IMG/VR virus record: IMGVR_UViG_3300024058_000001
Location: 1 to 64,000 of that record
DNA: 64,000 bases
From: a virus
Lineage: Duplodnaviria; Caudoviricetes
Reading direction: 5' to 3' (one strand)
The first letter of the stretch is position 1, and the number at the start of each line of letters is the position of its first letter. The notes below the pieces were generated by a model. The model was not told where the DNA came from, did not search any database, and saw only the letters and a list, made by a program, of their open reading frames with translations. Shown here one piece after another: positions 9,639 to 40,485 of this stretch. Made by a program: the position numbers and the translations under genes.

Positions 9639-9656
9639 ATGTGCCTCCTTGATTGT

Positions 9657-9685
9657 ATTATACCACAGTAGACGGTATAAAGCAA
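9657..9685 (-). promoter_or_regulatory. sigma70-type promoter for RNA repair/replication operon
   Basis: TTGCTT-17-TATAAT with TG extension. Confidence 0.7.
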
Positions 9686-9836
9686 ATATTAATTTCCGTC
9701 CATAGTAACAGACGAAACATGTTTATCTTCTATACTAACTGTAACAACAACTTTCTTACCTTCTAATCCGTTTACAAGTAAATCCTTTATGTCAGTAAGT
9801 AACTTCCTATCTTCTTTGCTTAGTCTTACACCAAAA

Positions 9837-24913: not shown

Positions 24914-25338
24914 CCCCCACTGTACTTATTACAGCATGAAGCGCATGCCATTTTATGCGCCCGTCTACTTAATCTAAACCTTTCGCGCTCATGACCATTT
25001 ACGCATTTACCTATGTAGTTTGCTTTAGGTGTATTGGCATCGTTTTCATTATAACACCTCTTACCATCCCCGCCCATTGAAATAAATTTATCGCGCCATA
25101 CCTTATCATGATTATGCCCTATTCCTGCAACTGCGTGTGCGATTTCGTGTAGAATTGTATTACGTACTCGATCTACTTCGTTTAGTCGTACAAGATGCTG
25201 CGATAACTTAATCACATTAATACCAAAATAACACGTACCAAAAGCACGTTTACTATTGCTTAGTCTTATTTCCCAATTGTGCAATCCGTATTCATTTTTT
25301 AGATTTTCTGCTAAGTGTAAAGCTTCTGTAATGTCCAT
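24868..25338 (-). CDS. SprT-like zinc metalloprotease
   Basis: G.C...I.LS, TILHEIAHA, H...W. Confidence 0.88.
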   Translation of the reverse strand: MDITEALHLAENLKNEYGLHNWEIRLSNSKRAFGTCYFGINVIKLSQHLVRLNEVDRVRNTILHEIAHAVAGIGHNHDKVWRDKFISMGGDGKRCYNENDANTPKANYIGKCVNGHERERFRLSRRAHKMACASCCNKYSGGKFDPTYQFTWKRVR

Positions 25339-25363
25339 TTTTAAATCCTTTCTTTTCAGATTT

Positions 25364-25558
25364 TTAACTATATGATCGTTGTACTAATCTATGTATCTGC
25401 TCGAATTCATTTTTATATTGTTCGCAACTATCACACTTTGCTATATGCCGAAATAAAGCATATGCTAATGCATACCGTGTAAAAGTACACGTTACTAAAT
25501 CTTCTATGCATTCGCGTGTTATATCGCATCCTATGTTTACTTTCCTTTTTTGTTTCAT
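25364..25558 (-). CDS. Stand-alone zinc anti-sigma (ZAS/zf-HC2)-like protein, 64 aa
   Basis: C11-x26-HIAKCDSC followed by amphipathic helix; first gene after a perfect promoter. Confidence 0.65.
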   Translation of the reverse strand: MKQKRKVNIGCDITRECIEDLVTCTFTRYALAYALFRHIAKCDSCEQYKNEFEQIHRLVQRSYS

Positions 25559-25587
25559 GATTTCACCCTTTCCCTTTCCTTGCTTAG

Positions 25588-25616
25588 ATTATACCCTAAC
25601 TGGTTTTCGCTGTCAA
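25588..25616 (-). promoter_or_regulatory. Perfect-consensus sigma70 promoter
   Basis: TTGACA-17-TATAAT. Confidence 0.85.
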
Positions 25617-26318
25617 GGCGAAAACGCGAAGAGTTTTTTTACTCCTGCTGCCATGCGCGGTTACAACAATATTTTTTGCTTTTTGCACTGATCCACCGCA
25701 TAAACCGCAATCCTTACAGGATACGCCCCTTGTAATAGCTGGACATAAAATCTCGTTTGCTTGTATATCATTTTTGTATGTAACCCGAAATGTACGCCAG
25801 CCTTCCGATACCGCTTGCTTTTGTTCTGCTAAGGTGTCCACGCTGGCCATTGTAAAAGCTTGCCCTTGCTTACTTGTACGCCATTGATGGGTATACCCAG
25901 TATTTTTATTTTTCTCTGTAAGCATGCTTTTCCATATTTCAGATGGTACCGCTTTCGGATCGCCATATGCCCCTAAGCGTATATCCTTACCTTTAAAATA
26001 TACCCCCTTATTAGCTTGCTTTGTGATATTGGCATATATGCCCCGTTTGTATGCCTTGTATATCGCTTCGGGTGCTTGCCCTATATTAACGTAGCAGTCA
26101 CCCTTTAGGGCCCATCTATGGGGACACGCCCCACAAATACTAAAATCCTTTTTTTCTCTGTAGGCTTCTATAGGGGACATATCACGCCTTAAGATCCACG
26201 TTTGTACCATGTCACCCGTTTTTATATTAGTAGTTACCATTGTTGCAATTACGACTATATCAGCTCCATCTATTAAGCTTGCCCCTTCATATATGATGTA
26301 GCCTTTTTGTTTAAGCAT
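25596..26318 (-). CDS. Cys-rich conserved phage protein (gp88/DUF7227-like)
   Basis: N.KTG, CG.C...CYV, RLGAYGDP, TGYTHQW, CP...C..C.LC. Confidence 0.6.
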   Translation of the reverse strand: MLKQKGYIIYEGASLIDGADIVVIATMVTTNIKTGDMVQTWILRRDMSPIEAYREKKDFSICGACPHRWALKGDCYVNIGQAPEAIYKAYKRGIYANITKQANKGVYFKGKDIRLGAYGDPKAVPSEIWKSMLTEKNKNTGYTHQWRTSKQGQAFTMASVDTLAEQKQAVSEGWRTFRVTYKNDIQANEILCPAITRGVSCKDCGLCGGSVQKAKNIVVTAHGSRSKKTLRVFALTAKTS

Positions 26319-26505
26319 GCTTACCCCCTTTTTTATAATTGGCTTTTATCAGTTTCATATAACATATTAAATTTGTCTCTATCTTGATAATACAGATAAT
26401 CGCCATACGGTCTTTTTATCTGTCGGTATCTGCCGTTACGATGCATAGGATTGGAATATTCCTTATTTAGTTTTTCTCTAAATTCTTTTTTAGTCATTTC
26501 CTCAC

Positions 26506-26808
26506 CTATCCTTTTTTGTGTTTCGTGCCTATACTCAAAAGGTACCCCATAAAAACCTGCTTGTCAAGGGGAACGTCCAATTTTTGTGTGCCATCTTGAC
26601 CCATCCCGTACATGTACTTATTAAATACCCCCCCTATTGCGTAACCCCTTATGGTGCGTATGTTTAACGTACCACCCCGATTAATATCAAGGTACAAAAA
26701 GGAAACGTGACTCCGAAACTTTGCAATATACCCCCTAGTTATTTTACTTATGCTTACTTGCTTATTCTTTTCTAGTTTTATCTTTGTGTTTGTATTCAAG
26801 TCTATCAT
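26506..26808 (-). CDS. Hypothetical early protein
   Basis: ORF with GAGGAG RBS downstream of promoter 26852. Confidence 0.5.
   Translation of the reverse strand: MIDLNTNTKIKLEKNKQVSISKITRGYIAKFRSHVSFLYLDINRGGTLNIRTIRGYAIGGVFNKYMYGMGQDGTQKLDVPLDKQVFMGYLLSIGTKHKKG
26539..26567 (-). promoter_or_regulatory. sigma70-type promoter
   Basis: TTGACA-17-TACCTT. Confidence 0.55.
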
Positions 26809-26851
26809 TTTTTTTACTACTCCTCTAGGTACCTACCTGTTATCTATTATA

Positions 26852-26879
26852 AGTATAGCCTATGGACGGTAAAAGTCAA
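26852..26879 (-). promoter_or_regulatory. sigma70-type promoter, module copy 1
   Basis: TTGACT-16-TATACT, spacer contains ACCGTCCAT. Confidence 0.7.
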
Positions 26880-26907
26880 GGGTAGGCAGGATAATAAATA
26901 TAGATAC

Positions 26908-26925
26908 TTGGCATGGTACTTGCTA
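26908..26925 (+). promoter_or_regulatory. sigma54 (RpoN) -24/-12 site, module copy 1
   Basis: TTGGCATGGTACTTGCTA, GG-N10-GC. Confidence 0.75.
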
Positions 26926-27227
26926 GTAAATTTTACCTTATTATATAACTTTTTAAATGTATTTAGCTAGGGAGGACATGTTAGACTTTGCAAAAGACTT
27001 TACACATTTCTTATTAAAGTCATTACCAAAGTCCAGTAGGAGGGTTCGGGGTATATGACTTATTTTTGCACATATTAAAACACGTTTTTTAAGAAGTTTG
27101 GGTAGGAGGGGTTTATTTACTACTTATTATAACATGCATTTTAAGAAGTCCGATTCTTACTTCACCTCAGACTTTTATAAACTTATTAAGAAGAGGGTGC
27201 TCTCTCCCCTTGGCCTTTCCTACCTAT

Positions 27228-27256
27228 ATACTAACACCTAACGACTAACTTGTCAA
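27228..27256 (-). promoter_or_regulatory. sigma70-type promoter
   Basis: TTGACA-17-TAGTAT with TG extension. Confidence 0.65.
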
Positions 27257-27264
27257 GTGTTATT

Positions 27265-28554
27265 TTATAATATTTTACAATTGTAATTGGCATCTACTAA
27301 TTTACGATGCATACAATCCCATATAAAAACTTCTCTTTTTGATCCTAGTATATACGCGATTGCTTTTTGCTTATCATTTGTCTTTAGAAATACTTTGCAT
27401 GCTCTTGTAGTACGTGATTCGGAATGTTCACCTTGCACCCAATATCTTTTAAACTCGTATGTTTGCATATGCTCACCTATCCCTTTCTTTATTTAACATT
27501 ACTAATGTACTACATATATTATCGAACATACTACATTTGTTGTCAGCTTTGCATGTACTACAAGTCTTTATATGCTGCTGTAACGTTTGACTTAAAAGCT
27601 TTGGCGCGTTAATCGTTCCGTGTATAATCATTTATTTTACTCCTTTTCTTTTTTTAAGTTCGGCACGATATATAGACGCTTCGTCAGAATAATAACTATC
27701 GTCTATCCTTGCTTGTACACATGCTATACAATCATTGATTGCACTGTATAGATCGGCATAAGACATCTTTTCGGCTTGCTTAGCTTTCGCTTCCCAGTCT
27801 ATTTGTTTTGTCATATGTTCACCTTATCCCTTTTTTTTATTTACTTCTTACAATTATCATTATAATCATACAGATCAAACACTAGCTTGCAATGATCGAA
27901 TGCATCTAATCTAGGTTTATCCATATTACTAAATCGTTCGATATGCTCTTTCGATAAATCTTGACCACAACGTGCACAGCTAAAAGATGTTTTATCGCAT
28001 GACGATAATACTATAACGTCATTGTATCCCTTATCATAACCATGTTTATATACCATATCTATTTGTTCCTGTGTATACATCATGGGTGCTTTTTTAATCT
28101 TTGTAATGGTATTTGTTTTTACATTTCTTTTTAAATCGCTTTTAGCTTGTGCTACTTTCTCGACCTCTATCGTAAACGTACGATAGTTAAATGCTTTATT
28201 ACTCTTTTTAGCCATCATAGAATAATCTAACGTTGCATTTGACCTAGTTAAATAATCTTCGATCTGTCCTATCTTTTCTGCCTGTGCCTTAAAGTCTTTG
28301 CGTGTTAGCATGTTTCACCTTATCCCTTTTTAGATTTATAGTTTATTATCTTCGTATGCATCAATCGCATTATCAAACAAGCTTTCAATCGTCCCATACG
28401 TTAAGCCTACGGTAAAAACATCATCGTAAGGTACATCGCGTACATCTTCGCTATTGAATCTTATCCATTCGCCATTGACGCTTACTACCGTGTCAAGCGT
28501 TCCATCGTCTTCTAGCCTTACTTCATAGTCCGTACCGTCTTTTGTGATCTTCAT
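27265..28554 (-). other. Four short hypothetical early genes (27265-27468, 27632-27814, 27841-28311, 28336-28554)
   Basis: Each preceded by a similar AAAGGG..AGGTGA RBS. Confidence 0.55.
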
Positions 28555-28581
28555 TTGTTCACCTTTGCCCTTTCTGATAGA

Positions 28582-28609
28582 ATCATAACAGATGGACGGT
28601 TTATTGCAA
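28582..28609 (-). promoter_or_regulatory. sigma70-type promoter, module copy 2
   Basis: TTGCAA-16-TATGAT, spacer contains ACCGTCCAT. Confidence 0.65.
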
Positions 28610-28637
28610 GGCCCTAGCCTAAAATAATTAAAATAGT

Positions 28638-28655
28638 TTGGCATGATACTTGCTA
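28638..28655 (+). promoter_or_regulatory. sigma54 (RpoN) -24/-12 site, module copy 2
   Basis: TTGGCATGATACTTGCTA, GG-N10-GC. Confidence 0.75.
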
Positions 28656-29256
28656 CAAGTCAGACTGAATTAGTCTTATATAAAGACTTATTAAAGATAG
28701 GAAATAACAATATAGTAATAAGAAAAGAGTTCATAAAGACATAAGGATAACATATAAGTTATCATAGGACTTATACAAAGAGTGAGGATAAGTTTCCCTT
28801 ACGGTTAGGGCTTTATAAAGAGATTTTAAAAGATGTGTGAGTGAAGAGCACTGGTTTTACCCATATCCTAAGCACAACTGTGTCATTTTGCTACGCCTAG
28901 AGAGGTACTTAAGAGCCTATAAGTACTCAATTATCCTTATGTGTGTACTTGTATTTGTATATGATTTCTTCTCTTTATGTCCTTCTAGGTACTTGGAGTA
29001 CACGCCTTATCCTATGTAATACTTATCTCTTTATGCGTTGTTTAGGGGGCTATTCTCCGCATTCTTTACCTGTAGGGGGGCTTTTTGAGATGATATATCT
29101 CGCCATAACATACATATTTGTCATCCTTTTGGCTACTTATAATTTACATCATATATGCTGTGGTTCTAGACATCCTAACAACTTATACGCTGTTTGGGCT
29201 ATAACTCTATATAACCATGTAATTTGGTCATCTACTTGCCTATTTACACTGTTTTT

Positions 29257-29305
29257 TGATAGATCGGCAAGGAGGACCTAGTGGACTTAGGTTGCCGATC
29301 TATCA
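29257..29305. repeat. 14-bp inverted repeat hairpin with bulged GGAGG
   Basis: TGATAGATCGGCAA ... TTGCCGATCTATCA. Confidence 0.8.
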
Positions 29306-29527
29306 TGTTTAGGGTAGGGGGGGGTTTTGCATGTCATCTTTTATGTACACGATATATTTTGGTAATTGCTACATAATGCTTACACTTGTTGATAAGTGTA
29401 GACGTTTTGTACACCTCATCAGGTATGAAAGAGGCATTTACTACTCATTTAGTGTCTGATTAGCATGCGTTTATGCCAGCTAGGGTATAGCTTAACTTCT
29501 CTATTATGAGAGTTTAACAGCCCTTTT

Positions 29528-29635
29528 TGTGATTATTTCACGAATTGTGTCCTTAAAGCGTGATAATCATCACATTATGTATAATCAATATGTATCATTT
29601 ATGATACATTATAAAGATGTGTCACTTCTGATACA
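29528..29635. promoter_or_regulatory. Cluster of palindromic protein-binding-like sites
   Basis: TGTGATTATTTCACG, GTGATAATCATCAC, ATGTATCATTTATGATACAT, TGTGTCACTTCTGATACA. Confidence 0.55.
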
Positions 29636-29935
29636 CCTCTTTTTGATGCTTCTCTGCTAGCCTGACAGTTTGATTTGGTTTATAAGGGGATTTAGGGGTT
29701 AGAATGGTCAAATCGTCGATTTAAGCTCTTGAAGCTGAGTTAGGGGGCTAGACCCCCGTCTATCAGCAAATGGCCTACAGCCTTCATTCTGGAGGATGTT
29801 TGTGTATGGAATACAGGGCTTTAGTGGGCGTTAGACCACGATTATTGGGAATCTGACTATCTGTGCTTGTCACTGTGTGGGTATGCTGAAAAACTATCGG
29901 TTTCCCTGCGGGGCACAGGCATTGAAAAAAGGCAT

Positions 29936-29978
29936 AAAAAAAGCCCCTAATACGGTGCAGAAACACCACATTAAGGGC
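29936..29978 (-). terminator. Rho-independent terminator ending the accessory block
   Basis: GCCCTTAATGTGGTG-TTTCTG-CACCGTATTAGGGGC followed by T7. Confidence 0.85.
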
Positions 29979-30016
29979 GACTAGGAAGAACCCTAGTTCT
30001 TACTAAATTCTAATAG

Positions 30017-30214
30017 TTATTTATGTAATATTAATTTTTCAAATTTGAAATCTTTATATTTATCAGGCACAATACAAATCTCCGCATTTAAGATAAGAGC
30101 ACCTTTAATAATAACTTCTGAACTCAATACAACATCAACTTTTTGATATCCCATGCCCATTTCTGGACACTTAAGTAATTCTATTGTTTGTTCTTCACTT
30201 AGTTTAATTTCCAT
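30017..30214 (-). CDS. Small conserved protein (PE.GMGYQ motif)
   Basis: ORF with AAGGAGGT RBS. Confidence 0.55.
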   Translation of the reverse strand: MEIKLSEEQTIELLKCPEMGMGYQKVDVVLSSEVIIKGALILNAEICIVPDKYKDFKFEKLILHK

Positions 30215-30342
30215 AATTTTACCTCCTTACTCACTTCTAATTATATTAAGGTGAAAATATATAGGCAATACAAGAAACTGCTACAAACGATACACAAATA
30301 GCAATCATAATCTCGTCAGGACTCATATCTATCTCCTTTTTA

Positions 30343-30456
30343 CTTAAAGCAAAGAGCAGGATTGGCTACCTACACGGCCACAATGGTTTCACGAAATGTG
30401 CAGCCTAAAACGATGTTAACTATACTAGCGTCTAATTCCGCCATCTTTGCTTTAAG
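30343..30456 (-). ncRNA. tRNA-like element (degenerate; D-arm resembles tRNA-Leu)
   Basis: 13-bp closing stem, D-arm-like TGGCGGAATTAGACGC, T-arm-like GTAGG-TAGCCAAT-CCTGC; no canonical anticodon arm, no TTC, no CCA. Confidence 0.45.
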
Positions 30457-30522
30457 CCCAGGTTGGTAGCCCTCAAACGGTAGTCGGCTCTAGGGCTGAC
30501 ACCTCGGACTACTACCCAGGCT
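30455..30522 (-). ncRNA. Putative structured RNA, possible pseudoknot
   Basis: Outer stem AGCCTGGGT/ACCTGGGCT; interleaved GTAGTC/GACTAC and AGCCCT/AGGGCT pairings. Confidence 0.35.
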
Positions 30523-30831
30523 ATTTGTTATAGTTTTATCTTCATGTCTTCTTCATAATCCTCTATAGTTTCTCTTTTAACCCACCAAGGCCAAGGCGTT
30601 TCAGTTGTTGCCATCACTACCCACACTCAAAGGTTTAACTAGGTACTGAATAAACTTCTTTGCTTTGATATAGTTAAAAACATCAAAATGAAACCTACCC
30701 AATATTGTTCCCTTGGTACTTATACATATAGTTCTTGTTTTGTCGTTAAGTGCATATGCATTTGGAACTGGGTAAGCTTTCCCATTACACCAAGCTTTAA
30801 ATTCTAAAAGTTTACTCATGGTTTCTCCTTT

Positions 30832-31167
30832 TTAGACTGTATGAGTTCCTTCAACTGAACGTTCTTCTCTTTCTTTTGTTCTATGATCAAGCCAATGCAA
30901 GGCTTCTTCTAACTTTATGATAGCCATTGCATTCTCTGGACATTTGAACTTGCCATCGTTGGCTTTCTGATAAAATTCTATACGTTGTTTAGCAGCAGAA
31001 ATAACTGTTTCAACAAATGCTCCATTAGGTTCTTGTCTCTCGGTTCCACGACCTAATGGCCCATCTTGCCAATTGATTGATAAACCTGTACCTTCAAATT
31101 TACCACCAGATGGATTTCCTTCAATATCTCTATAGTTTTCATAGTTACAGTTTTTAATGTCATTCAT
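30832..31167 (-). CDS. tad1: Tad1/Acb2-family anti-defence nucleotide sponge
   Basis: I.WQ.GP...NG...E.V......RI..YQ...F.C.ENA.AI..LEEAL.WL..RT..R..R.VEGT matches the Tad1 pattern recalled from memory. Confidence 0.65.
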   Translation of the reverse strand: MNDIKNCNYENYRDIEGNPSGGKFEGTGLSINWQDGPLGRGTERQEPNGAFVETVISAAKQRIEFYQKANDGKFKCPENAMAIIKLEEALHWLDHRTKEREERSVEGTHTV

Positions 31168-31546
31168 AGTTTCTCCTTTCTATTTTAAATTTATTATACT
31201 ACTTGGTTAGTCCATCTTATTGTATCATCTGTTATACTGCGATATGCTGTGCTAACACAAATACCAAAAAGGTATATTTCAGCCCAAGCACCTATATCAG
31301 GGGAGCTACCCCATCTTACATTTATATGGTTTAATAAAAACTTCTTAAATATCCATCTCTTTAGTTTGTTCATGATTTAATACCTCTTAATTGTTCTTAA
31401 ATTTTCTATCCTAAGAGCGTCATTTAGTTCATAATCTATGTATGTATACGGAGAAATAAATCTACTATCATAATCATCGGCTGGTTTCCATCCTTTACGT
31501 TTCAGCCTGATAGCAGCATTTTTAATTTCTCTATATATTTTATCGA

Positions 31547-31972
31547 TCATGACTTCGCCATCATATTATCAATAACTTCATAGTAGCTTGTCATATAAGA
31601 TTGCCTTAAATGAGACGTTTCATGTTTATCTTCATCATTTTTTTGAATAGCAAAACGAGCTTCATTAGGTACATAAATAATATGATAGTATTCAACACTC
31701 GTTTCTCCAGTTGGCTTATTAGTCATCACATTTACTATCCTTGACGTTGACTTAACAATGTCTCCTTCATATATATCCTTTTCATGTTTATCTTGTAAGC
31801 CACTGTATTGACCAACAGTTTCAGGGTCTACATCAAATGCATGACAATTCAATTCAACAATTTGATGGGATTCTGTATAATCCACACTGTCATGATAATC
31901 TATATAAACATAACTACCGTAAACCCATTCTCCATTGTCAACTCGTTTGCCTCTAAATTTAATGTCTCTCAT
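31547..31972 (-). CDS. YopX family protein
   Basis: MRDIKFRGK..DNGEWVYG, TVGQYSGL.DK....IYEGDIV. Confidence 0.88.
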   Translation of the reverse strand: MRDIKFRGKRVDNGEWVYGSYVYIDYHDSVDYTESHQIVELNCHAFDVDPETVGQYSGLQDKHEKDIYEGDIVKSTSRIVNVMTNKPTGETSVEYYHIIYVPNEARFAIQKNDEDKHETSHLRQSYMTSYYEVIDNMMAKS

Positions 31973-32128
31973 GACTTCACCATTAACCTCTATTACTGTC
32001 GATTACACAATCTTCTATTTCATCGTCAGGATCACGACCCTGTGCATCACACACTTTTCTAAATTCACACAATATGCTTTCTAGATTAGATTTTAAGTCA
32101 GCATATTTTTGGAATTCTTCCGCCTCGC

Positions 32129-37553: not shown

Positions 37554-38438
37554 TTAGGACAAATTATCTTGTACATGAATTTCTCCTCCATGTCCTTGTA
37601 CTTCATAGTATAAATAGTCTACTCTTACTCTATGATATTCCTTGCCCCATTTGTTTGATTCGCTTACTTCCATGAAGCGATTAAAGTTCTCTTTCGCTTC
37701 ATACACCCTAAATTGCGAAGGTGGATGTGCGCTAAAAAAGTGTATAAAATCAGGTAACTTGTCTATTGGTATTGTGGCCAATTTCTCATTATATTTTATT
37801 ACTGCTTCTGCTGGATAACCTAGCTTTGACAAATAATTCATTGCTCTACCATCTGCCTCTACTTCGGCACTTTTACTAAATTGTTGCTTAATATAAGGAG
37901 AGCTTACTTCAAAACCTGATAACATACCTGATGCTGCACCTGCAGCAGATCCTAAATATCCACCTGTTGCACTAAGTCCAATTTTTGCAATTTTGTTTAT
38001 TTTAAACTTTTTTCCCTTTTTACCTGATTGATAACGTAATGCAGTAGTATGTCCTATTTCATGAGCTAACACTGCAGCAAGCTCTGCTTTTGAATCTATA
38101 AAAGAAAATAGCCCTGTTGATATATAGATATAACCACCAGGAAAAGCAAATGCTTCTACTCTTGGTTCTTTTATTACAAAGAATTGCCAAGGTAGATGAG
38201 GGCGTTCACTTATCCTAGCGATATCTTTGCCCACTTTGGTTACATAATCATTAATTATTTCATCTTCAATAAATACGACATCTTTTTTAAATTGTTTACT
38301 TTGATCTACACCTGACCTAATTTCTTCTAAATCATACATATTAAGAGGAATATCATCACTAATAATACGCATTCTTTTATCTGTACATCCTAATAATAAA
38401 AAACTTACAATTAACATTACTAATAAAAGCATTCGCAT
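37554..38438 (-). CDS. M48 family zinc metalloprotease lipoprotein (BepA/YfgC-like)
   Basis: Lipobox LLLGC, AFAFPGGYI, ELAAVLAHEIGH, E.EAD, SAHP. Confidence 0.9.
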   Translation of the reverse strand: MRMLLLVMLIVSFLLLGCTDKRMRIISDDIPLNMYDLEEIRSGVDQSKQFKKDVVFIEDEIINDYVTKVGKDIARISERPHLPWQFFVIKEPRVEAFAFPGGYIYISTGLFSFIDSKAELAAVLAHEIGHTTALRYQSGKKGKKFKINKIAKIGLSATGGYLGSAAGAASGMLSGFEVSSPYIKQQFSKSAEVEADGRAMNYLSKLGYPAEAVIKYNEKLATIPIDKLPDFIHFFSAHPPSQFRVYEAKENFNRFMEVSESNKWGKEYHRVRVDYLYYEVQGHGGEIHVQDNLS

Positions 38439-38967: not shown

Positions 38968-39507
38968 TCATACCTTATCCAAGCAACATTTCTTGTATTT
39001 TTTACCACTGCCACAAATACAAGGATCATTGCGTCCTATTCTTAATACATTCTTTATTGTTCCGCATATAGCATGATCAAAATAAAGAATACCATTTGTA
39101 TGATCGATCTCATGCTGTATAACAACTGCTTCTATATCTTCTACCATAGATTTATGTTCTTCTAATTCTTCGTCTTGGTATGTAAAAGTAACATGTTTAT
39201 ATCTATCTGTTTGCTTTGACTTCTTAGGAAAACTCAAACATCCTTCTTTAGAAAATACAAATGGTTCTTCTCTGCTTACTATCTGTGCATTACATGCAAA
39301 CAGCCATTGACCTGAAGGAAACTTTACTAAAAATGCTTGTCTATGTATCCCAATTTGTGGTGCAGATACTCCATATGCTCCTTCTTTAGGAAACATCCCC
39401 AGTAATGCTTCTTTTAAGTCTGTTGCTTGCTCCTTGGTTTCCACTGGTTTGCAAGTCTGTCGTAAGAATTCTTCGCTGTAAAGTGGGAACTGCTTTAGTT
39501 TTATCAC
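38968..39507 (-). CDS. def: Peptide deformylase with C-terminal SEC-C motif
   Basis: GVSAPQIG, EGCLS, QHEIDH; GRNDPCICGSGKKYKKCC. Confidence 0.93.
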   Translation of the reverse strand: MIKLKQFPLYSEEFLRQTCKPVETKEQATDLKEALLGMFPKEGAYGVSAPQIGIHRQAFLVKFPSGQWLFACNAQIVSREEPFVFSKEGCLSFPKKSKQTDRYKHVTFTYQDEELEEHKSMVEDIEAVVIQHEIDHTNGILYFDHAICGTIKNVLRIGRNDPCICGSGKKYKKCCLDKV

Positions 39508-39930: not shown

Positions 39931-40485
39931 CTATGAATTAGGGTCAATCTCACATTTGCCTTTTTTATGATCCTCTTCAAACTTCTTATTGAATTTATCA
40001 AACAGCACTCTTTGGTCACGTATTTGTATGCACACATTTTTTATTACTGCATCTAAATCAATAAAATCTTCATCTGGAGGAGGTTTTGGTATTGAAGTTG
40101 CTACAAATACAATATCATTACCTTTACTTTTACGTGGTACATTCCACGCATCAAATTCTTTCATTCCTGGCAATATCTTGTAGAGTATCTTGCGTATATC
40201 TTCTAAGCTTAGATTAGCCATACCAAACTTATCCCATTTAATATCCTGTTTTAAGCATGCATCTAACCAGCCAATAACACGCTCTAAACCTTGAGGAAAT
40301 GCATAAGGAGACTGCCTAACAGCAGTCCATGCTAATGCCCCTGTAATATCTTTTCTAAAGGTAATACGTTTTTCTTTCCATGTACTGTTTTGTTGATTAG
40401 GTACATCTTTTAACACAGCTTTTATCTCCTTAAGTAAACTATCAGGATTCTTTATGTTTACAATTGGATATTTTTTTCTATTCAT
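39931..40485 (-). CDS. Hypothetical protein
   Basis: 184-aa ORF directly after promoter. Confidence 0.6.
   Translation of the reverse strand: MNRKKYPIVNIKNPDSLLKEIKAVLKDVPNQQNSTWKEKRITFRKDITGALAWTAVRQSPYAFPQGLERVIGWLDACLKQDIKWDKFGMANLSLEDIRKILYKILPGMKEFDAWNVPRKSKGNDIVFVATSIPKPPPDEDFIDLDAVIKNVCIQIRDQRVLFDKFNKKFEEDHKKGKCEIDPNS

Follow-up and report, generated by a model that had tools for sequence, protein, structure and literature searches.

Two 18-mers in a phage genome are best explained as genuine sigma-54 elements (RpoN; SigL in Bacillota) that selection appears to keep at constant spacing from a divergent early promoter of the host sigma-A type, where a parked or activator-gated complex would pay off in control rather than in gene expression. 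This composite reading is somewhat favoured, and binding of sigma-54 at the 18-mers, taken by itself, is rather likely. The 64-kb stretch of DNA analysed (the window) belongs to a 104,771-bp genome and holds a 74-bp module twice, at 26852-26925 and 28582-28655, all elements being shifted by exactly 1730 nt from copy 1 to copy 2. The module reads in this order; a leftward -10 box, a 16-bp spacer with conserved ATGGACGGT, a -35 box, 28 AT-rich bp, and a plus-strand TTGGCATG(G/A)TACTTGCTA. The 18-mers, which lie 28 bp past the -35 box, are the sigma-54-type -24/-12 elements; site 1 (26908-26925, plus strand) is TTGGCATGGTACTTGCTA, or TTGGCATG-GTAC-TTGCTA, with GG at 26910-26911, GC at 26921-26922 and a predicted rightward start near 26934, and site 2 (28638-28655, plus strand) is TTGGCATGATACTTGCTA, or TTGGCATG-ATAC-TTGCTA, with a predicted rightward start near 28664. 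The linker of module 1 (26880-26907, 28 bp) is A+T-rich and UP-element-like in its sigma-54-proximal half, and that of module 2 (28610-28637, 28 bp) is also A+T-rich. The original prediction had claimed a duplicate module with every element offset by 1730 nt and diverged bases between kept motifs, and the sequences of both copies bear this out; the two copies agree at 17 of 18 positions of the 18-mer and at 9 of 9 of the spacer 9-mer but at only 11 of the 28 intervening bp, and the promoter boxes agree at 3 of 6 (-35) and 4 of 6 positions (-10).

Both 18-mers match all 12 positions of the Clostridiales sigma-54 consensus TTGGCATNNNNNTTGCT. This consensus has been used for finding sigma-54 sites in 57 Clostridiales genomes (PMC6615313). 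The 104,771-bp genome contains two exact matches to TTGGCATNNNNNTTGCT against 0.013 expected, both of them the module 18-mers, and the window contains three matches with at most one mismatch against 0.45 expected. When up to three mismatches to the 18-mer are allowed, two occurrences are found in the window (0.07 expected), and the whole genome yields only these two module hits. A chance origin of both 18-mers is thus excluded. The two window sites, and likewise every one of the 8 aligned copies described below, have exactly 10 bp between GG and GC, in the arrangement TGGCA(C/T)-N5-TTGC.

The aligned set consists of 8 module copies from five phage genomes, namely the window phage and four contigs from other samples (L035, L036, L037 and L238) that were reached by exact-protein look-ups; the sources of the five genomes are subsurface, marine-sediment and hadal-trench samples, the window phage being an uncultured sediment phage assembled from a subsurface metagenome. 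Neither megablast nor blastn against the phage collection turned up close relatives, nor did neighbouring proteins in IMG/VR, and scans of IMG/VR and metagenome contigs with the whole-module pattern returned chance or unrelated sigma-54 sites only. Module 1 has counterparts in L035 and L238, and module 2 in all four relatives. The 8 copies align without indels over the whole stretch that starts with the -10 box and closes with the 18-mer, and the TTGG-A-TG and TTGCT blocks, which comprise 13 recognition positions, show a single change in the whole set (C to A in L037, the one relative with an altered -24 block, TTGGAATG). By contrast, the 4-nt centre reads GTAC, CGAA, ATAA, ATAC or ATAG, so that three of its four bases are variable. 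Site 1 is TTGGCATG-CGAA-TTGCTT in L035 and TTGGCATG-ATAA-TTGCTA in L238; site 2 has the ATAG centre in L035 and L036, is TTGGAATG-ATAG in L037, and in L238 is the same as in the window. In the module-1 trio, the -35-proximal DNA is scrambled (GGGTAGGCAGG, CCCCCTACCCT and TAGGTCATGCA) but both blocks are untouched. Across the linkers of the 8 copies, an AATAA core and several further columns never change and the -35-proximal half is variable; the 50-nt bin 28600-28649, which takes in most of linker 2 and 12 nt at the start of the 18-mer of site 2, is identical to L238 at 48 of 50 positions. Only the spacing within the module is fixed, since the distance between the modules varies (1730 nt in the window, 1593 nt in L035 and 1229 nt in L238). 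The driven genes and the genes between the modules also differ among the phages, and the modules remain.

Such bipartite conservation with a free centre would be expected of a -24/-12 element and not of a dyad operator. At functional E. coli sigma-54 sites, conservation is likewise limited to the important positions (Bonocora et al., 2015; PMC4591121). The -24/-12 identity put forward in the original prediction is therefore well supported by the complete consensus match together with block-confined conservation and invariant spacing in four relatives, and the prediction's interpretation as a whole is partly supported, with a decoy, a physiological switch and an antisense or small-RNA promoter as its candidate functions. 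The same data bear on the idea that the duplication is a neutral remnant without function. The two modules are clearly homologous, as a remnant would be, but the linkers share only 11/28 against 17/18 and 9/9 in the blocks, and the modules persist in four relatives despite replacement of the surrounding genes, which makes this idea scarcely credible.

The leftward halves of the modules have the make-up of sigma-A-type promoters, with conserved -35 and -10 hexamers 16 bp apart and, no more than about 40 nt further on, a ribosome-binding site and a real gene. Leftward promoter 1 (26852-26879, minus strand) consists of TTGACT (26879-26874), a 16-nt spacer with ACCGTCCAT (26870-26862) and TATACT (26857-26852), and is conserved in L035 and L238. 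Its target is a 100-aa gene (26506-26808) starting 44 nt after the -10 box, and the N-terminal 52 aa of the product have 50% identity to the start of P0009 in L238. Leftward promoter 2 (28582-28609, minus strand) consists of TTGCAA (28609-28604), a 16-nt spacer with ACCGTCCAT (28600-28592) and TATGAT, the last forming the extended -10 element TGT-TATGAT (box at 28587-28582), and is conserved in L035, L036, L037 and L238. It leads to a 72-aa gene (28336-28554) that starts 28 nt after the -10 box and has homologues at 92-93% identity; distant homologues in L038 and L039 have no module upstream. A second sigma-54-like site, TGGACGGTTTATTGCA, overlapping promoter 2 was rejected, as its GG is missing in all relatives, and the 18-mer was also discarded as a plus-strand sigma-A promoter, as it has no usable -10 box.

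The 18-mer might instead be recognised by a different DNA-binding protein (a host factor, or an early or middle regulator of the phage) that acts from upstream as a class I-type activator or a repressor of the leftward promoter, in which case the likeness to sigma-54 sites would be coincidental. The geometry agrees with this; the centre of the 18-mer lies near -71.5 of the leftward start, a classic class I position, and the register is strictly fixed. Moreover, another element of the module is conserved, namely the GACG core of ATGGACGGT in the spacer, which recurs in inverted orientation at a third promoter near 9660-9705, once upstream of it and once within its spacer. This recurrence indicates that dedicated regulators do act on these promoters, and the spacer 9-mer is a plausible operator of a phage regulator. 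The 18-mer itself, however, shows neither dyad symmetry, the reverse complement of TTGGCATGRTACTTGCTA being unlike the site, nor direct-repeat symmetry, and the bipartite conservation with its free centre is of another kind. A likeness of ACCATGCCA to the 9-mer ACCGTCCA is gone in the relatives because it depends on the variable centre. A coincidental 12/12 match with the right GG-N10-GC spacing is also very improbable (0.013 per genome). Furthermore, the 18-mer occurs in 31 unrelated viral contigs with GC contents from 28% to 57%, often clustered with similar sites, whereas the reversed control occurs in none. Its presence in contigs of such widely differing GC fits a factor with universal specificity and not a private regulator. 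The operator of a phage-encoded regulator, which had been named beforehand as the finding that would overturn the sigma-54 assignment, is therefore improbable for the 18-mer, which has no dyad and recurs in the 31 contigs against zero for the control, and the broader proposal of another protein at this site is unlikely as well.

Both sites had been described as facing non-coding DNA, and the codon usage of all downstream plus-strand ORFs agrees with this description. These ORFs score -0.10 to -0.28 per codon and a 26-codon ORF scores 0.02, compared with a median of +0.20 for small minus-strand ORFs. The plus-strand small ORFs, including the 26-codon one at 26978-27058, were dismissed on account of low codon score and lack of conservation, and a 20-25-codon minus-strand ORF in island 2 was dismissed since its changes among the relatives appear to be all non-synonymous. 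Island 1, the non-coding DNA right of site 1 (26926-27264), contains two imperfect palindromes of 28 bp each (27070-27097 and 27122-27149) and, at its right end, a fully conserved leftward promoter (27228-27256). Island 2, right of site 2 (28656-28900), has about 80-92% identity in four relatives.

These islands give some ground for regarding the sites as productive promoters fired by a host enhancer-binding protein, with the rightward transcript serving as an unstructured regulatory or antisense RNA, as an R-loop, or to activate by transcription an element for replication or packaging that lies in the islands. The DNA to the right of each site is conserved while neighbouring genes are exchanged among the relatives, the phased 28-bp palindromes of island 1 have multiplied to six or seven in L035, and a 1.4-kb gap beyond site 2 carries clustered TAGGGG repeats and a perfect 14-bp inverted repeat. 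The origins of T4 and T7, which combine a promoter with an unwinding element, offer a likeness. Enhancer sites are able to act from downstream of a sigma-54 promoter, so that the island 1 palindromes could serve as enhancers. On the other hand, islands 1 and 2 have no common sequence, and L035 does not preserve the bases that directly follow the -12 block. Nothing marks out an RNA; an Rfam search of the downstream DNA was empty up to E = 1, folding energy showed no excess over shuffles on either strand of either island (z = +0.49, -0.54, -0.73 and +0.15), covariation terms were positive with only one or two compensatory pairs among 55-59, and no terminator that would define a downstream RNA was found. 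A structured small RNA downstream was thus rejected for both strands of both islands, as neither folding energy nor covariation gave a signal. There is likewise no origin-type skew signal, and no activator was identified. Productive promoters of this kind are therefore doubtful.

The phage appears to bring no sigma-54 machinery of its own. For RpoN and enhancer-binding ATPases, PF00158, PF14532 and PF04552 had no match in the phage, and no Fis-type activator was found; a weak HTH_8 match was rejected as an activator, the protein being a metallophosphoesterase. An upstream activator site common to both modules was not found either, the palindromes sitting downstream of site 1. The other signals of the genome are Bacillota-like; its promoters are of the form TTGACA, 17 nt and a TRTG-type extended -10, and Shine-Dalgarno 5-mers precede 46% of ORFs against 8% of control positions. 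Such promoter and ribosome-binding signals fit the TGGCAT form of the sigma-54 consensus. As clues to the host, the phage has no tRNA genes, and its peptide deformylase has just 30-36% identity to the bacterial genomes tried. The best matches of the ALDH are in Bdellovibrionota MAGs, which possess RpoN, but these were rejected as hosts because the matched loci have about 53% GC against 35% in the phage.

Under the favoured reading of the 18-mers as docking sites of the host sigma-54 polymerase, the holoenzyme would bind them after injection as a stable closed complex. At site 1, the footprint would extend over about 26900-26929, right up to the UP-element zone of the leftward promoter, with about 89 bp between the two divergent starts. 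The complex would stay parked, and only a host enhancer-binding ATPase could set off transcription to the right, into the conserved non-coding island; given binding, the chances that a site ever fires are about evenly balanced. Since no phage activator and no visible downstream product were found, the pay-off would more likely lie in control than in gene expression, namely in control of the early promoter or the island through occupancy, through competition between promoters, or through antisense transcription gated by the host.

The sites might also be pure decoys, by which replicated phage genomes would titrate scarce host sigma-54 holoenzyme and shut host sigma-54 regulons. Sigma-54 is of low abundance, and two sites in each of a few hundred genomes could make a difference. 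A role as decoys has been considered for sigma-54 sites of non-canonical kind (PMC4591121), and it would agree with the finding of neither product nor activator. A decoy does not need a fixed register with the neighbouring promoter, yet this register is invariant in 8 copies, and there are just two sites per genome, so that decoys are very unlikely. To return to a polymerase bound for local control, a bolder version would make the parked sigma-54 polymerase an architectural part of the first early promoters, held 28 bp back from the -35 box in fixed helical phase, gating the sigma-A promoter or the island, and released by a host stress or nutrient activator. This version is possible, though held tentatively. 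If it holds, the first minutes of infection would be coupled to host physiology without a phage-encoded regulator. Against the favoured reading stand the parked sigma-54 complexes of E. coli, which showed no roadblock effect on overlapping genes (PMC4591121).

In general, then, these phages probably dock or use a host sigma-54 polymerase form. Transcription by sigma-54 is usually treated as a cellular stress and nutrient system, and, one promoter of phage YuA aside, there is hardly any work on how virulent phages use it. Here a compact 74-bp unit with two promoters in fixed register is present in five phage genomes and survives the swapping of surrounding genes. If sigma-54 polymerase binds to it, the module would represent a natural case of one polymerase form placed to control another, would tie phage early expression to host physiology, and would add a Bacillota-like lineage to the phages that have such sites and no activator. 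Designs of synthetic divergent promoters could also take it over as a finished part.

As for known systems, the lev, roc and aco promoters of B. subtilis are further examples of sigma-54 (SigL) promoters. With the bacterial RpoN/SigL -24/-12 promoters of the Clostridiales set (PMC6615313), the phage sites share GG and GC 10 bp apart, a free centre, and conservation of the recognition positions only. They differ in that no downstream gene, upstream activator sequence or activator gene was found for them, and in that they stand back to back with an early sigma-A promoter and point against the orientation of all genes of the phage. The orphan and intragenic sigma-54 sites of E. coli (PMC4591121) are similar in having a strong consensus far from any suitably oriented gene and conservation on the important bases only. 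The E. coli sites are bound in an inactive state, as is proposed for the phage sites, but they are chromosomal and lie mostly within genes in the sense direction, whereas the phage sites are intergenic, directed against the genes and paired with a promoter. The statement in the original prediction that sigma-54 sites are rarely described in phages has to be qualified, since the Pseudomonas phage YuA has a mapped example, a start site assigned to the sigma-54-like promoter P015 (Ceyssens et al., 2008, as cited in PMC10914365). The host of YuA is a high-GC proteobacterium and the start was mapped, whereas the present sites are predicted, accompany Bacillota-like signals and occur as two copies in a duplicated cassette. 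What the two systems have in common is a virulent phage with a host sigma-54-type promoter beside sigma-70-type promoters.

Reading of the sequence bore out the original prediction of two back-to-back promoter modules at 26852-26925 (module 1) and 28582-28655 (module 2), and the 1730-nt offset between the copies is the same for every element of both. On the minus strand, each module runs from the reverse complement of an 18-mer, which is a sigma-54-type -24/-12 element on the plus strand (site 1, 26908-26925; site 2, 28638-28655), through a 28-bp linker, A+T-rich toward the 18-mer, to a leftward sigma-A-type promoter. The latter consists of a -35 box (TTGACT in module 1, TTGCAA in module 2), a 16-nt spacer with a 9-mer, ACCGTCCAT, at positions 4-12, and a -10 box (TATACT in module 1; TATGAT with a preceding TGT in module 2), and is followed by a ribosome-binding site and a minus-strand start codon (26808 and 28554, respectively). 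The copies agree at 17 of 18 positions in the 18-mer and at 9 of 9 in the 9-mer versus 11 of 28 in the linker, so that the shared blocks are attributable to selection and not to recent copying. With up to two mismatches permitted, the 18-mer has no further occurrence in the 104,771-bp genome.

Exact-protein look-ups with two module-adjacent genes yielded four related contigs from other samples; L035 (4.1 kb) and L238 (12 kb, an NCBI record of a Challenger Deep viral survey; PMC9529941) carry both modules, and L036 and L037 carry module 2 only. The resulting eight modules align with zero indels from the -10 box through the end of the 18-mer, whereas the distance between modules varies (1730, 1593 and 1229 nt); the predicted exact register is therefore a property within each module and does not hold between modules. 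If the leftward start is placed ~7 nt past the -10 box and the sigma-54 start 12 nt past the GC, the two starts in a module would lie ~89 bp apart, with the 18-mer centred at ~-71.5 relative to the leftward promoter. A closed sigma-54 complex has a footprint of ~-34 to -5, and its edge would here meet the start of the alpha-subunit/UP-element zone of the leftward polymerase. The fixed spacing in eight copies suggests that two bound machines, or whatever occupies the 18-mer, need a defined relative position, which a pure decoy would not need.

A sigma-54 recognition element is the best reading of the 18-mer from sequence and comparative evidence. Both sites match 12 of 12 specified positions of TTGGCATNNNNNTTGCT, the sigma-54 consensus used to search 57 Clostridiales genomes in a comparative study (PMC6615313). 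Exact matches to it number two genome-wide versus 0.013 expected from composition, and three in the window versus 0.45 expected when one mismatch is allowed. The 18-mer is asymmetric, without a dyad, and a plus-strand sigma-A promoter is ruled out, there being no -10 box at the right distance downstream. The main rival explanation is that a different protein binds the 18-mer and activates or represses from upstream, and the need for defined spacing would apply to such an occupant as well. However, the exact 18-mer is found in 31 IMG/VR contigs with GC contents from 28% to 57%, and its reversed form, used as a control, has no match in IMG/VR; the presence of one motif in unrelated phages so different in composition is consistent with a universally specific host factor and at odds with a private phage regulator. 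Many of these 18-mers are clustered with similar TTGGCATG-N4-CTTGC sites or adjoin an opposed copy; a crude ORF test places most of them between genes and gives few of them an ORF that starts in the same direction within 150 nt. Clusters of this kind, tandem or opposed, occur in the unrelated viral contigs L010, L008, L022, L033, L004 and L023, some being followed by the near-complement GCAAGATCCGTGCCA. A sigma-54-like promoter has been mapped in phage YuA (PMC10914365). On balance, binding of the 18-mer by host sigma-54 holoenzyme seems rather probable.

Several signals together point to a Bacillota-like host: strong promoters with TTGACA, a 17-nt spacer and a TRTG-type extended -10; Shine-Dalgarno 5-mers ahead of 46% of ORFs versus 8% of control positions; a DNA polymerase most similar to the enzymes of SPO1-like Bacillus phages (~30% identity); and YopX and Tad5-like genes. 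The Tad5 type I Thoeris inhibitor family match is strong (39931-40485, minus strand; E 4.6e-42) and is grouped after the tail genes with a peptide deformylase fused to a SEC-C zinc motif (38968-39507, minus) and an M48 peptidase (37554-38438, minus). The genome has 35% GC with nearly all credible genes on the minus strand; its source is a subsurface metagenome, and a marine-sediment run contains a relative at ~85-90% identity. The window covers the first 64 kb of the 104.8-kb IMG/VR record, whose 127-bp terminal overlap looks like a circular-assembly artefact. The aldehyde dehydrogenase (536-2029, minus) shares 73% and 69% identity with genes of two Bdellovibrionota MAGs, every other bacterial match being at most 60%. 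Both MAGs encode RpoN, but they are not credible hosts because the matched loci have ~53% GC versus 35% in the phage.

A domain search of the phage genome found no Sigma54_activat, Sigma54_activ_2 or RpoN DNA-binding domain, and the only Fis-type HTH match falls in a metallophosphoesterase, on its generic N-terminal helix-turn-helix. A 129-aa protein (genome 87622-88011, minus; L034 1447-1836) matches Sigma70_r4 (34 bits versus a cut-off of 24.1) and the PHROG 'RNA polymerase sigma factor' without having region 2. It was rejected as the factor for the -24/-12 sites, to whose recognition sigma-70 region 4 is irrelevant, and may be a phage factor for transcription in the middle or late phase. 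No sigma-A-type promoters precede the structural genes. Comparison of the two modules revealed no common candidate for an upstream activator site, and any firing of sites 1 and 2 would rely on a host activator. The sites could serve as an activator-gated divergent promoter, with transcription of the island being what matters, as a parked complex modulating the early promoter, or as both at different times.

As predicted, the sites face non-coding DNA, the codon score being negative or near zero for every plus-strand ORF rightward. An Rfam search of 25000-32000 gave no family with a cut-off of E = 1; the 240-290 nt downstream of each site, when folded, gave z-scores of -0.73 to +0.49 on either strand; and folds of alignments that included three or four relatives gave positive covariation terms with just one or two compensatory pairs. 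By ORF, Rfam and folding evidence, no discrete RNA product is visible there. Even so, the DNA does not drift freely: in comparison with L238, 26700-27300 and 28550-28900 stand out as islands with 56-96% (mostly ~80% or more) identity per 50-nt bin, while other genes have taken the place of those between and beside them. The gene led by module 2 encodes 72 aa in four genomes, and L238 has a 45-aa gene in that place; module 1 leads into a 100-aa gene in the window, and its L238 counterpart leads into a gene that joins the N-terminal part of that one to the following gene. With islands conserved and neighbouring genes swapped, the modules and their islands behave as portable control cassettes. 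Between 26300-30300 and L238 5700-9900, the regulatory islands are better conserved than the surrounding genes, and in place of the window's five small inter-module genes L238 has two others and L035 another set. Genes are exchanged here like cassettes at conserved promoter regions.

Island 1, to the right of site 1, contains two imperfect 28-bp palindromes (27070-27097 and 27122-27149) 52 bp apart, versus six or seven copies in L035 (1320-1640), and they resemble targets of a dimeric DNA-binding protein, whether iterons, operators or enhancers. Their consensus is approximately ACTTMTTAWAA-N6-TTWTAAKAAGT; partial copies lie near 26948, 27176 and 28686, and GAATWGCTTTG follows most copies in L035. 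At the end of the island, a leftward promoter (27228-27256, minus; TTGACA-17-TGT-TAGTAT) lies inside 58 consecutive alignment columns identical between the window and L035. No coding sequence follows for 290 nt, and its predicted transcription would run through the palindrome array toward site 1. Beyond site 2, 28656-30016 is 1.4 kb without a credible gene, the ORF at 29784-29969 having been discarded for its codon score (-0.18) and its overlap with a terminator (29943-29978). TAGGGG occurs nine times on the plus strand of the genome, five of them in 29043-29741; the region also has a perfect 14-bp inverted repeat (29257-29305), and its 1.6-kb counterpart in L238 has this G-run motif too, along with blocks common to both. 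The stretch may serve in packaging or replication, or may contain the genome ends.

The 9-mer, ATGGACGGT, is less strictly conserved than the 18-mer; it occurs as ATTGACGGT, ACGGACGGT and AGGGACGTC among the relatives, and only its GACG core is invariant. A third leftward promoter (9655-9705, minus; TTGCTT-17-TATAAT), which precedes the RNA ligase gene, has ATGGACGG just upstream of its -35 box and ACCGTC at the modules' spacer position, forming an inverted pair. This suggests that the three belong to a small class of promoters sharing a dedicated operator, of which the 9-mer word is plausibly a half-site for a separate regulator.

In the 18-mer, TTGG-A-TG and TTGCT are kept in all eight modules with the sole exception of one C-to-A change in L037, and the four bases separating the two blocks vary (GTAC, CGAA, ATAA, ATAC or ATAG). 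The three copies of module 1 offer the most telling comparison: the 11 bp adjoining the -35 box are scrambled, yet 13 of 13 recognition positions are unchanged, and these are intact even in L035, where the sequence past the -12 block is unalignable. The same restriction of conservation to important bases has been used to argue for functional sigma-54 sites in E. coli (Bonocora et al.; PMC4591121).
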